This document shows positions 3,037 through 11,217 of a DNA stretch of 13,646 nucleotides, one piece after another. Position 1 is the first letter of the stretch. Each line of letters opens with the position of its first letter. The notes beneath the pieces are model-generated. The model was given only the letters and a program-made list of their open reading frames with translations. It was not told where the DNA came from and did no database searches. The stretch is from UHGV virus genome UHGV-0885819; one strand, written 5' to 3'. The stretch is from a virus. The translations under genes were made by a program, and so were the position numbers.

Positions 3037-3375
3037 ATGAACGACCAGCAAATCGAAAAAGAAATCGTTGAGAAAGGCAAAACGGCACCGCGCGTTACGC
3101 CAGACCATATCGAAAGCATTATTCTTGCGGAAACGTACTTCACTGCTGCTGATGGGGCTATTGCAACTGGCGATGACTATCACGACAGTTTGGCTCTGCT
3201 GACATTTTGTGTATTGACTCTACAAAATGGCTTCACCGTCACCGGTGAAAGCGCTTGCGCCAGTCCTGAAAACTTTGATGCAGAAATTGGTCGGAAGATT
3301 GCCCGGCAAAATGCTGTAAACAAAATCTGGATGCTCGAAGGTTACTTGCTGAAGCAGAAGCTAAGCGAACAGTAG
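3037..3375 (+). CDS. Conserved phage protein of unknown function (112 aa), possibly the N4 gp49 / Sf6 gp66 family
   Basis: ORF preceded by an AGGG Shine-Dalgarno-like motif. Motifs YFTAADG and GESACASPENFDAEIGRKIA look familiar from lambdoid prophage proteins placed ahead of terminase genes; the family assignment is uncertain. Confidence 0.75.
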   Translation: MNDQQIEKEIVEKGKTAPRVTPDHIESIILAETYFTAADGAIATGDDYHDSLALLTFCVLTLQNGFTVTGESACASPENFDAEIGRKIARQNAVNKIWMLEGYLLKQKLSEQ

Positions 3376-3478: not shown

Positions 3479-3691
3479 ATGGCAGAGATTATTCCCATGA
3501 CTGAAGAACAGAAATTCAAGTTAGAAATTTACCGACTGCTATCTAAGAACAATTCAGCGGCAGAGGAAGCTTTTGCATTCATTGGTGCTGACCAGCTGAA
3601 ACTGGAATTGTTCAAGTTGCACTACAACGATGGCGGTGCAAATCCAGACTTCACATCTCGCACTATCGAAGCGGTGCGTAAATCGAAGTAA
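3479..3691 (+). CDS. Small hypothetical protein (70 aa)
   Basis: ORF with GGAG 8 nt upstream of the ATG, predicted helical, no recognisable motif. Sits immediately upstream of the small terminase gene. Confidence 0.55.
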   Translation: MAEIIPMTEEQKFKLEIYRLLSKNNSAAEEAFAFIGADQLKLELFKLHYNDGGANPDFTSRTIEAVRKSK

Positions 3692-7901: not shown

Positions 7902-8813
7902 ATGGACCAAACCACCGACATTCAGGCTTCTGAAGAATTAACCCTGCCCGGCAATCATGCAGCGGCATCTGCTGATGGCTTAGTTGTCGATAATGCCAAC
8001 GACAACGCAGGTCAGGAAGAAGGCTTCGAGATTGTCCTGAAAGACGATGAGAAACCAAAACAAGACCCGGCAACTAATGCTGAATTTGCCCGTCGCCGCA
8101 TCGAACGCAAACGCCAGCGTGAGCTTGAGCAACAGATGGAAGCGGTTAAGCGGGGAGAGTTGCCGGAGCACCTGCGGGTGAACCCTGAGTTACCAAAACA
8201 ACCAGACCCTAACGATTATCTTTCCGAAGACGCACTGGCTAAGTACGACTATGACCAGAGCCGCGCACTGGCTGCCTTCCAGCAGGCAAACAGTGAATGG
8301 CAGATCAAGGCTATGGATGCACGAAGCCAGGCTGTCGCCGAGCAGGGTCGCAAAACTCAGGAGTTCACCCAGCAATCAGCGCAATACGTCGAGGCAGCCC
8401 GTAAGCACTACGACGCAGCGGAAAAGCTCAATATCCCTGACTATCAGGAGAAAGAGGATGCATTCATGCAACTGGTGACGCCAGCAGTCGGTGCCGACAT
8501 CATGCGCCTCTTCCCGGAGAAATCCGCTGCTCTCATGTATCACCTTGGTGCTAATCCTGAGAAAACACGCCAGTTGCTGGCGATGGACGGGCAATCCGCG
8601 CTGATTGAACTCACTCGACTGTCAGAACGTTTAACTCTCAAGCCTCGAGCCAAACCTGTTTCAGAAGCCCCGCTACCTGATGAACCCATTCAGGGACACG
8701 CTGTTGCTGCAAATATATCTGCGATTGAAAAGCAGATGGAAGCGGCAGCAAACAAAGGGGATGTAGAGACATACCGCAAGCTTAAGGCGCAACTGAATAA
8801 AGGAATTCGATAA
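7902..8813 (+). CDS. 8: Scaffolding protein, P22 gp8-like (303 aa)
   Basis: Protein [50 protein letters not shown]... resembles P22 gp8 in sequence and has the same length; it ends in a helix-turn-helix-like coat-binding tail. Confidence 0.9.
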
Positions 8814-10108
8814 TGGCATTAAATGAAGGTCAACTGGTCACGTATGCTCTGGATGAAATCATCGAAACCGTCCAGAACCTGACGCCAATGGCGTCCAAAG
8901 TGACAAAATACACCCCTCCGGCAGAATCCATGCAGCGTTCAAGCAACACCGTGTGGATGCCTGTTGAGCAGGAAGCGCCAACCCAGACTGGCTGGGATTT
9001 AACTGGCAACGCAACCGGGATTCTGGAACTCTCCGTGAAGTGCAACATGGGCGATCCGGATAACGATTTCTTCGAGCTTCGTGCAGATGACCTGCGTGAT
9101 GAGCGTTCTTACCGTCGCCGCATCCAGGCATCCGCCAAAAAACTGGCGAATAACATTGAGTCAGCGATTGCCAAACAGGCAACTGAAATGGGCTCGCTTG
9201 TTGTTCACGATACCCGCGCAATTGGTCCATCTACTGGCCTGTCTGGCTGGGATTTTGTGTCTGATGCAGAGCGCCTGATGTTCTCCCGTGAGCTAAACCG
9301 CGATATGGGCATCAGTTACTTCCTGAACCCTGACGATTACCGCAAAGCAGGCCGCAACCTGGTAGATGGCGACATCTTCGGGCGAGTTCCTGAAGAAGCG
9401 TATCGCAACGGTACTATTCAGCGTCAGATTGCTGGCTTTGATGAAATTCTTCGCTCACCTAAACTTCCGGCAGTTACCAAGTCAACCGCTACTGGTGTAA
9501 CTGTTTCTGGTGCGCAGAAGTTTAAGCCGCAGGCATACACTCTTGATACCGATGGTAACAAAGAGAACGTCGACAACCGTGTTGCAACGGTGACCGTATC
9601 CTCCACCACCGGATTTAAGCGCGGCGACAAAATCAGCTTCACTGGCGTGAAATTCCTGTCTCAGATGGCGAAGAACGTGCTGACTGATGACGCGACTTTC
9701 TCAATCACCCGTGTGATCGATGGTACTCACATCGAAATCACGCCGAAGCCGATTGCGCTTGATGACGCTTCACTGACAAAAGAAGAGAAGGCTTACGCTA
9801 ACGTAAACACCTCTCTTGCTGATACCACTCCGGTAAACGTTCTGAACGTGGCAACGACCACCGCTAACGTGTTCTGGGCTGATGACTCAATCCGTCTGCT
9901 GTCTCAGCCGATCCCGGTAACCCATGAACTGTTTGCTGGCATGAAAACGTCTTCCTTCAGCATTCCTGGTATTGGTGTTAACGGCATCTTCGCAACGCAG
10001 GGTGATATCAACACTCTGTCTGGTAAGTGCCGTATTGCTGTGTGGTATTCAGCATGTGCTGTACGACCAGAGGCAATTGGTGTTGGTCTGCCTAACCAGA
10101 CCGCGTGA
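8813..10108 (+). CDS. 5: Major coat protein, P22 gp5-like (431 aa)
   Basis: Protein [54 protein letters not shown]... resembles P22 coat protein. Start overlaps the scaffold stop (TAATG). Confidence 0.9.
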
Positions 10109-10113
10109 TAACC

Positions 10114-10140
10114 AGAGGGAGCTTCGGCTCCCTTTTCTAT
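10114..10140 (+). terminator. Tetraloop hairpin terminator or attenuator just after the coat gene
   Basis: Stem GAGGGAGC (10114-10121) / GCTCCCTT (10126-10133) closed by a TTCG tetraloop and followed by TTTTCTATT. Confidence 0.5.
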
Positions 10141-10151
10141 TGGAGATACCA

Positions 10152-10739
10152 ATGAGCGTAATGATTTTTCAGGCTGGCGGAGATACCAAAATATGGGGGC
10201 GCAAGCTGAAAACGAAAACCGTTGATCCTGATGATGTAGCTGTGCACTTAGCAAATGGCTGGTATAAGCACCCTGACGATGTTCCTGATGATCCTCTTGT
10301 TGGTGATCAAATTGGGAGTGTTGGCGTAGGTGAAACTTCCCCAGTTGATATGGGCGAAGTGTCCGACGGTTATCACACTTTTAACGAGCTTTACGCTCAC
10401 CGAGTGCGCCTCTTCTCATCGCTGATGCATGCTTACGCTGAGCTTTCGTGGTGGTCTCGCAAACACAGTGACGGTGAAGAGTGGGATGGCTGGATTATTG
10501 CTGGTATCACCACTCCAGAAGGCGAAATCACTTATCACCTACCTGTTGAAGAAATCGAGTTCCTTCCTGAAGGTACTGAGCTTGAGTTCGGGAAAGAGTG
10601 GGATGGTCATGAAGCAAATGATGTTCTTGGACGACTCCTGAGTTTGCGTCCGGCCATTGCAGAGCCAGAAGAAAAACAGCGTAAAAAGCCTGGTCGAAAA
10701 CCTAAGGCGGCAGCAGATGAACCTGACAACGAAGGGTGA
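10152..10739 (+). CDS. Unrecognised acidic protein (195 aa) between the coat and gp4 genes
   Basis: ATG at 10152 with GGAG 6 nt upstream; its 3' end overlaps the gp4 start by 23 nt. By my count the product has roughly twice as many acidic as basic residues, plus a lysine-rich tail ([11 protein letters not shown]). The upstream part of the six-frame ORF (9972-10151) overlaps coat and is not coding. Confidence 0.7.
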
Positions 10740-11217
10740 TTTAGTTCTTGCGGCATTACGTAAGCTCGGTGTGGCATCAAATGCCACGTTAACCGATGTC
10801 GAACCGCAGTCTATGGAAGACGGCGTTAACGACCTTGAAATGATGATGGCTGAATGGCTTGGCGGTGATGCGTCACCTGGTATCAACGTTGGCTACATTT
10901 TTGCTGATGCAGATGTTGCTCCGGATCCGGGCGATGAGCACGGCTTATCAAATAACGCTATTAATGCCGTCATTTTCAACCTTGCCTGCCGCATTGCTCC
11001 AGATTATGCGCTGGAAGCGTCTGCAAAACTTATAACCACTGCCAGATACGGGAAAGAGCGACTCGTCAAACTGTCTGCAATGGACAGAGCAAAAGCCGCT
11101 AAATGTAAGTCCGGTTATCCAAACCGTATGCCTGTTGGTAGCGGTAACCAGTTGGCGAAGTGGAACGGTTGGAATTACTTCCACCGAAAGGAACCTTGCG
11201 ATAACGGGAGCGAATAA
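10717..11217 (+). CDS. 4: Tail accessory factor, P22 gp4-like (166 aa from ATG 10717)
   Basis: Protein [47 protein letters not shown]... matches P22 gp4 in sequence and length. The upstream TTG at 10657 in the ORF track is unlikely to be the start. Confidence 0.85.

Follow-up and report, generated by a model that had tools for sequence, protein, structure and literature searches.

A WDGH-domain protein between the coat gene and gene 4 of a P22-like prophage: a possible counter-defence module

In the P22-like phages, relatives of the gene studied here are gene 6 of epsilon34 and its homologues, which differ in length, those of P22 and Scho1 having internal deletions, and whose role is unknown (PMC2629481). 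The P22 copy, orf69, is non-essential (PMC2629481, citing Eppler et al. 1991), and orf186 of phage L is listed as 'function unknown' (PMC8022706). Other systems that come into the comparison are small phage proteins directed against nucleotide-signalling immunity. Sequestin sequesters 3'cADPR and blocks type I Thoeris, and it came to light because it is fused to Tad2 and Acb4, two sponges already known (Tal et al., bioRxiv 10.1101/2025.07.12.664507). The same study equates the family PF13876 (N4 gp49, Sf6 gene 66) with the Acb4 anti-CBASS sponge (Tal et al. 2025, bioRxiv 10.1101/2025.07.12.664507). The case of Acb5 illustrates that a small module of this kind can be an enzyme, using Trp, Arg and His.

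We analyzed a window of 13,646 nucleotides (UHGV virus genome UHGV-0885819) in which a 195-residue open reading frame (ORF) lies between the coat gene and gene 4. A reading of the sequence alone had left this ORF unplaced and had proposed that it encodes either a virion or assembly protein specific to this phage lineage or an acidic, DNA-mimic-type anti-restriction protein.

The slot between the coat gene and gene 4

The content of the window, as judged from Pfam matches and synteny, is the late operon of a P22-like prophage, and positions 9900-10900 are 100% identical to the chromosome of E. coli 88-3493 in a search of complete E. coli genomes. A Q antiterminator fragment, holin, Rz, gp3, gp2, portal, scaffold, coat, gp4 and gp10 were confirmed by Pfam. 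The P22 gene order proposed from the sequence thus stands for genes 3, 2, 1, 8, 5, 4 and 10; the ORF after gp10, which has no Pfam match, is gp26 by synteny alone, and gene 14, by P22 synteny, would extend past the window end. The unmatched ORF between holin and Rz is presumed to be the endolysin. Two tRNA genes, tRNA-Asn (GTT, 609-683) and tRNA-Thr (TGT, 689-764), are found on the + strand at the start of the late operon, between the Q antiterminator fragment (3-335) and the holin gene. The features of the slot are the following.

8813-10108, + strand: coat (gp5) gene, left border of the slot (Pfam P22_CoatProtein, E 2.8e-166)
10114-10135, + strand: post-coat stem-loop ('t coat') with a 9-bp stem, GGGAGC/GCUCCC core and UUCG tetraloop, then a T-rich run to 10141 (fold, conservation, public records)
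10142-10145, + strand: GGAG ribosome-binding site, 6 nt upstream of the ATG at 10152 (sequence)
10152-10739, + strand: 195-residue ORF, homologue of epsilon34 gene 6, ST64T and L orf186 and ST104 ORF54 (PHROG 3769; sequence, homology)
10703-10707, + strand: TAAGG ribosome-binding site of gp4, within the 195-residue ORF (sequence)
10717-11217, + strand: gp4 (head-tail adaptor) gene, its first 23 nt overlapping the 195-residue ORF (Pfam P22_Tail-4, E 1.1e-58)

Direct reading of the sequence confirmed that the ORF has its own GGAG site and a 23-nt overlap with gp4. The gp4 ATG lies 23 nt before the ORF end and the TAAGG site inside the ORF, an arrangement suited to the translational coupling that had been suggested, and CCTAAGGCGG at the gp4 ribosome-binding site is unchanged in an alignment of four phages. 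We also considered the ORF as a self-expressed 'moron'; this was not supported, since no promoter-like site was found upstream of it.

The GC stem, TTCG tetraloop and T-run that had been pointed out ahead of the ORF are indeed present, terminator-like and conserved across lineages. The hairpin reads AGAGGGAGC-UUCG-GCUCCCUUU, then TTTTCTATT; with GGGAGC-UUCG-GCUCCC followed by UUUUCUAUU, it has the composition of an intrinsic terminator, and it may terminate transcription, attenuate it or stabilise the mRNA. For the 56-nt hairpin stretch, the folding energy is -19.2 kcal/mol (z-score -2.85 against shuffles). Its position is kept in six P22-like phages (including P22, epsilon34, Sf6, HK620 and Bas106), with two compensatory pairs, and in the public records of P22, Sf6 and HK620 it is entered either as a stem-loop or as a terminator named 't coat' or tGP5. 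A consensus terminator scan of the sequence did not flag the hairpin; we think that the stem extension consumes the T-run and that this explains the miss.

Homology searches contradicted the view that the ORF could not be placed by sequence. Residues 68-165 match Pfam PF25311, the WDGH domain, over all 97 positions of the model with 134.8 bits (gathering threshold 27 bits; E 1e-39), PHROG 3769 covers the whole protein (E 3.7e-101), and phrog_1175 covers residues 1-44 (E 1.9e-14). By tblastn, homologues of about 63% identity were found in epsilon34 (gene 6), ST64T and phage L (orf186), ST104 (ORF54) and BTP1, each of them flanked by coat and gene 4, and P22 orf69 is a truncated homologue. Identical E. 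coli copies in RefSeq are named either 'hypothetical' or 'WDGH domain-containing protein'. The gene of the window is thus an approximately 63%-identity member of a catalogued family, and it is neither unrecognised nor specific to one phage lineage. It is not a known virion protein, and on this point the sequence-only reading holds, the published role of the homologues being unknown (PMC2629481; PMC8022706).

A comparison of the coat-gp4 junction across P22-like genomes had been recommended; in P22, Sf6, HK620, epsilon34 and Bas106 it revealed a hairpin, a small ORF and an overlap with gene 4 in each. The 195-residue ORF lies between the post-coat stem-loop and gene 4 with its 3' end overlapping gene 4, and it has both the homologous N-terminal mini-domain and the K/R-G-R-K-P-K tail of the slot genes. 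Judged from these sequences, a slot gene is universal in P22-like phages and the WDGH insert is optional.

Short forms of the gene bear on this optional character. BLASTP aligned P22 orf69 (69 residues) to the N-domain with E 2e-8 and to the tail with E 0.006. In the closest E. coli phages (IME10, Bas106, HZ41, Dewey and Louie), flanks about 98% identical to those of the window enclose a 76-residue protein, made of the N-domain, an (EP)n linker and a tail identical to that of the window. Since the N-domain DNA of these phages matches that of the window at no more than about 45% identity, against about 98% for the flanks, the piece between hairpin and tail is swapped as a cassette. The junction is present in 217 of the 5,426 complete E. 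coli genomes, 42 of the 217 having the long form. A search with the short form as query returned hypothetical proteins only.

A Glu-Pro (GAGCCA) repeat, at 10662-10673 in the window and at about 2700-2760 in IME10, precedes the basic tail; its length differs between phages, with one EP in the window and up to 8-12 EP in some relatives. As the repeat falls on the right-hand junction of the swapped cassette, it may be a slippage or recombination hotspot.

Constraint, charge and anatomy of the protein

The ORF has 1,383 database homologues, and its overall dN/dS, calculated pairwise against five to eight relatives, is 0.13-0.19. It is therefore a real, constrained coding gene, as the sequence-only reading had assumed, and a spurious ORF is excluded. 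By parts, omega is about 0.05 in the WDGH core (residues 68-165), 0.11-0.27 in residues 1-44, about 0.4 in the linker and 0.15-0.38 in the tail. An AlphaFold2 model of the whole protein, computed with a 70-sequence alignment, has a mean pLDDT of 86.7 with lower confidence for the tail. The protein can be divided as follows.

10152-10283, + strand: N-terminal mini-domain, residues 1-44, beta-hairpin plus helix, common to P22 orf69 and the 76-residue forms (phrog_1175; AlphaFold2 pLDDT 90-97)
10284-10352, + strand: acidic disordered linker, residues 45-67, including most of PDDVPDDP (41-48) (pLDDT below 50 at 49-60; net charge -5)
10353-10646, + strand: WDGH domain, residues 68-165 (Pfam PF25311; conservation; omega about 0.05)
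10674-10706, + strand: basic tail motif, residues 175-185, kept in long and short forms (alignments; KPRKGRKPKA in P22)

Modelled alone, the WDGH domain is a compact alpha/beta structure with a pLDDT of 95.3 and a pTM of 0.83. Its near-invariant residues are D72, H75, E79, Y81, H83, R84, W100, H105, D107, Y128, H129, W150, D151, G152, H153, D157 and R161, among which are five His, four Asp, two Arg, two Tyr and two Trp. The W150-D151-G152-H153 motif and the block from S71 through R84 (SDGYHTF..ELY.HR) are both present in the window copy, and across 88 diverse members the conservation of each is at least 89%. Such a concentration of polar and aromatic residues within 98 positions suggests a catalytic or ligand-binding site. 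The basic tail motif is one that we take to be AT-hook-like. Part of its conservation is imposed by the gp4 ribosome-binding site, which is carried by the 3' part of the motif.

The protein had been described as very acidic. Its charge agrees with this description (38 D+E versus 20 K+R, net -18, pI 4.72), but it is not extreme, since neighbouring proteins have comparable pI values (portal 4.82, gp26 4.49). Within the family, the WDGH domains have a mean net charge of -5.9 with a range of -14 to 0, the window copy being the most acidic sampled; acidity is not a trait of the WDGH family.

The WDGH family, its fusions and its neighbours

A profile search (E up to 1e-3) retrieved 4,502 WDGH cluster representatives, the clusters being defined at 50% identity. 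They come from P22-like phages, Klebsiella and Serratia jumbo phages, 61-kb Erwinia and Klebsiella phages, cyanophage S-2L, lactococcal phages and actinophages. In Bacillus phages of the Tsamsa/Nate type the gene lies in an early block and overlaps a NADAR gene, in Listeria A511 it is gp21, within an early block of small genes, and in pneumococcal phages (IPP66) it belongs to the head module, between the portal and head-morphogenesis genes. An unconserved genome position of this sort is typical of accessory genes. A search for related loci returned mostly near-identical P22-like loci.

The overlap in Bacillus phage Nate (3842-5042) is one of 56 nt, between the WDGH gene, gp134, and the start of the NADAR-family gene gp135. 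NADAR enzymes undo ADP-ribosylation of DNA, and gp135 is possibly another anti-defence neighbour.

Literature searches for WDGH, PF25311 and phrog_3769 yielded nothing relevant and no link to defence, those for P22 orf69 yielded unrelated ORF69s only, and the WDGH family is absent from the supplements of Tal et al. Sequence searches of the PDB gave noise only (single-sequence best E 0.52, with PARG at E 1.2; profile best E 0.09, to H-NOX), a search of BFVD returned WDGH family members alone, and the PADLOC and NCBIfam profiles had no match to the ORF. No sequence or structural relative was found among solved anti-defence proteins.

More was learnt from the company that the domain keeps. Of the partner domains that could be identified in 72 multidomain WDGH proteins, Sequestin (PF21825) is the most frequent, with seven cases; a nucleotide pyrophosphohydrolase PHROG was found in two, and Tad2-like, Lar, RNase_T and DUF551 domains in one each. 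One protein, P0101, is a triple fusion of Tad2-like, WDGH and Sequestin domains. At least four different N-terminal modules precede WDGH-Sequestin (the Tad2-like one in P0101 and three others in P0107, P0077 and P0083), which suggests rapid module swapping. It should be kept in mind that the Sequestin fusions are not independent, as they come from a few related lineages. The genes of P0077 and P0083 lie directly downstream of a Tad2-like gene, and that of P0101 belongs to a phage with a P22-type portal, in which it is flanked by the lysis cassette and the terminase genes.

Near-identical WDGH-Sequestin bodies were also seen to carry wholly different N-termini (P0107 residues 1-85; P0077, P0083). 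The small N-terminal module of one WDGH-Sequestin protein is, at a guess, beta-barrel-like.

The window itself holds two relatives of known anti-signalling proteins.

2303-2803, + strand: 166-residue late-operon protein, Tad2-like (Thoeris anti-defence 2, PF11195) at residues 77-166 (Pfam, E 1.8e-24)
3037-3375, + strand: 112-residue PF13876 protein, full-length, of the Acb4 family according to Tal et al. 2025 (Pfam, E 1.8e-34)

The prophage therefore has a small anti-signalling cluster ahead of its terminase genes. The position of the two genes is the same as that of the P0101 triple-fusion gene, so that late expression of anti-signalling proteins looks normal in these phages, which takes away the chief argument against a late gene having an anti-defence role. 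The 195-residue ORF itself was matched by none of PF11195, PF21825 and PF13876, WDGH being its sole Pfam match at E up to 1. As to local details, the Tad2-like ORF, whose N-terminal 76 residues have no Pfam match, has the lysis cassette on one side and the small terminase gene on the other, and a DUF2560 ORF (3479-3691) comes after the PF13876 gene.

Possible functions and comparison with known systems

We propose that the WDGH domain could be a counter-defence module acting on nucleotide immune signals, a reading to which we give a probability of about 0.4. What speaks for it is homology, synteny, the optional cassette, a family independent of genome position, the fusions, the neighbourhood and the constraint, and taken as a whole this makes a tentative case. 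The minimal slot gene of every P22-like phage consists of a mini-domain of about 44 residues and a basic K/R-G-R-K tail, as in P22 orf69, between which the window phage, epsilon34, ST64T and L have a WDGH domain of 98 residues. The slot gene would be transcribed with the late operon, through the hairpin, and translated from its own GGAG, and the ribosomes would stop 23 nt inside gp4, whose translation would be coupled. As a mobile and optional module, WDGH could bind or, more likely, hydrolyze an immune signal derived from a nucleotide, such as those used by Thoeris, CBASS or Pycsar, or else a related small molecule. Its action would come late in infection, alongside the Tad2-like and Acb4-family proteins that the operon also encodes. 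We favour an enzyme over a sponge given the His/Asp constellation, and hydrolysis would be likelier than binding because of the invariant His/Asp/Arg/Tyr/Trp cluster. A more ambitious version would see in WDGH a widespread phage counter-defence family (about 4,500 clusters) of new fold that destroys or sequesters an immune signal, is carried as a cassette by P22-like phages, and whose basic tail might take it to DNA or into the capsid for the next infection; we find this version rather doubtful. Several points speak against counter-defence: the literature searches gave no link to defence, PADLOC and NCBIfam no match and the solved anti-defence proteins no relative, the Sequestin fusions come from a few related lineages, the RNase_T and nucleotide pyrophosphohydrolase fusions fit plain nucleotide metabolism equally well, and WDGH is acidic whereas the known sponges have positively charged pockets.

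These same fusions lead to another view, that of a small metal-dependent nucleotide or nucleic-acid enzyme, of phosphohydrolase or nuclease type, with a part in the DNA metabolism of the phage or in taking over the host and not in immune signalling. The dense invariant His/Asp/Glu set, with H75, E79 and H83 spaced i, i+4 and i+8, would suit such an enzyme, as would the occurrence of the gene in early-region blocks near replication genes of large Bacillus phages and a basic tail that resembles an AT-hook and could bind DNA. However, the identifiable domain most often fused to WDGH is a proven sponge for immune signals, WDGH is optional among near-identical phages, the window phage would express it late, when replication has already begun, and no fold relative was found among known hydrolases. 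We hold this view for improbable. Still less probable is that the product serves head completion or is an accessory of the virion, with the N-domain and tail placed at the capsid, portal or DNA interface, or packaged and injected, and WDGH as cargo. The position between coat and head-completion genes is fixed in all P22-like phages, with probable translational coupling to gp4, the basic, possibly DNA-binding tail is conserved, and a WDGH gene is also found in the head module of IPP66. Nevertheless, the P22 homologue can be dispensed with (PMC2629481, citing Eppler et al. 1991), WDGH occurs in early regions of myoviruses, siphoviruses and jumbo phages, and Sf6 gp6 fills the same slot without sequence similarity. 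Moreover, epsilon34 has the gene in its long form, yet its virion gels differ from those of P22 only in gp13, the tailspike and a 15-kDa Dec band and show no band of about 21 kDa; a major role in the virion is thus unlikely.

The late-operon anti-defence protein imagined by the sequence-only reading survives as a broad idea, through the fusions and neighbours, but not in its DNA-mimic form. An acidic anti-restriction protein of the Ocr or ArdA type could be argued from the net charge of -18, the pI of 4.72, the acidic clusters and the one family member fused to a Lar restriction-alleviation domain. Yet the charge density, about -0.09 per residue, is like that of the neighbouring structural proteins and unlike that of Ocr or ArdA, the acidity is not shared by the family at large (mean net charge -5.9, range -14 to 0), the most acidic stretch is a disordered and weakly constrained linker, and the fold is compact. 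We consider a DNA mimic as barely conceivable, and the remaining probability goes to something else.

As a sequence feature, the locus is ordinary: existing annotations of P22-like phages include the gene, the slot and the hairpin, and RefSeq contains an identical copy. What is new here is a functional lead for the large orphan WDGH family, through its fusion or adjacency to validated anti-Thoeris sponges, by the same logic that uncovered Sequestin. If the counter-defence reading is true, WDGH would bring to phage anti-immunity a fold that is new there and an enzymatic mechanism that may be new as well, it would account for the long-noted length polymorphism of the P22 morphogenetic operon, and P22-like late operons would carry several anti-signalling genes. 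Natural near-isogenic pairs with and without WDGH exist, the window prophage versus Bas106 or IME10, which makes this candidate family cheaply testable.

The closest known systems are epsilon34 gene 6, orf186 of ST64T and L, and ORF54 of ST104. They have the same slot (coat, hairpin, ORF and overlapped gene 4) and the same N-domain, WDGH domain and basic tail as the window gene, with about 63% identity overall and 76% in WDGH. They differ from it by an N-domain of only about 48-50% identity, by their Salmonella host, that of the window being E. coli, and by their lesser acidity. P22 orf69 and the E. coli forms of 74-98 residues (Bas106_0006, IME10) share with it the slot, the hairpin, the gene 4 overlap, a homologous N-domain and an identical or similar basic tail, but completely lack WDGH. 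Sf6 gene 6 (1686-1871) and HK620 hkbT (25865-26050) are alike in occupying the slot after the annotated coat terminator, in overlapping gene 4 and in their KRGRK-type tail. On the other hand, they have no WDGH domain and no detectable similarity to the 195-residue ORF or to the orf69/orf186 family, to which they may be analogous or from which they may have diverged past recognition. With the PF25311 family at large, the window copy shares a full-length domain match and all motif residues. Most members stand alone with 110-160 residues or have other N-terminal modules, the orf69-type N-domain and the basic tail being specific to P22-like phages. Finally, a parallel can be drawn with Tad2, Sequestin, Acb4 and Acb5. 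Although these have no sequence or fold similarity to WDGH, which is acidic overall, they are like it in being short, phage-restricted, optional and modular, and Tad2, Sequestin and Acb4 share with it polypeptides, gene clusters and the late-operon region of phages with a P22-type portal.
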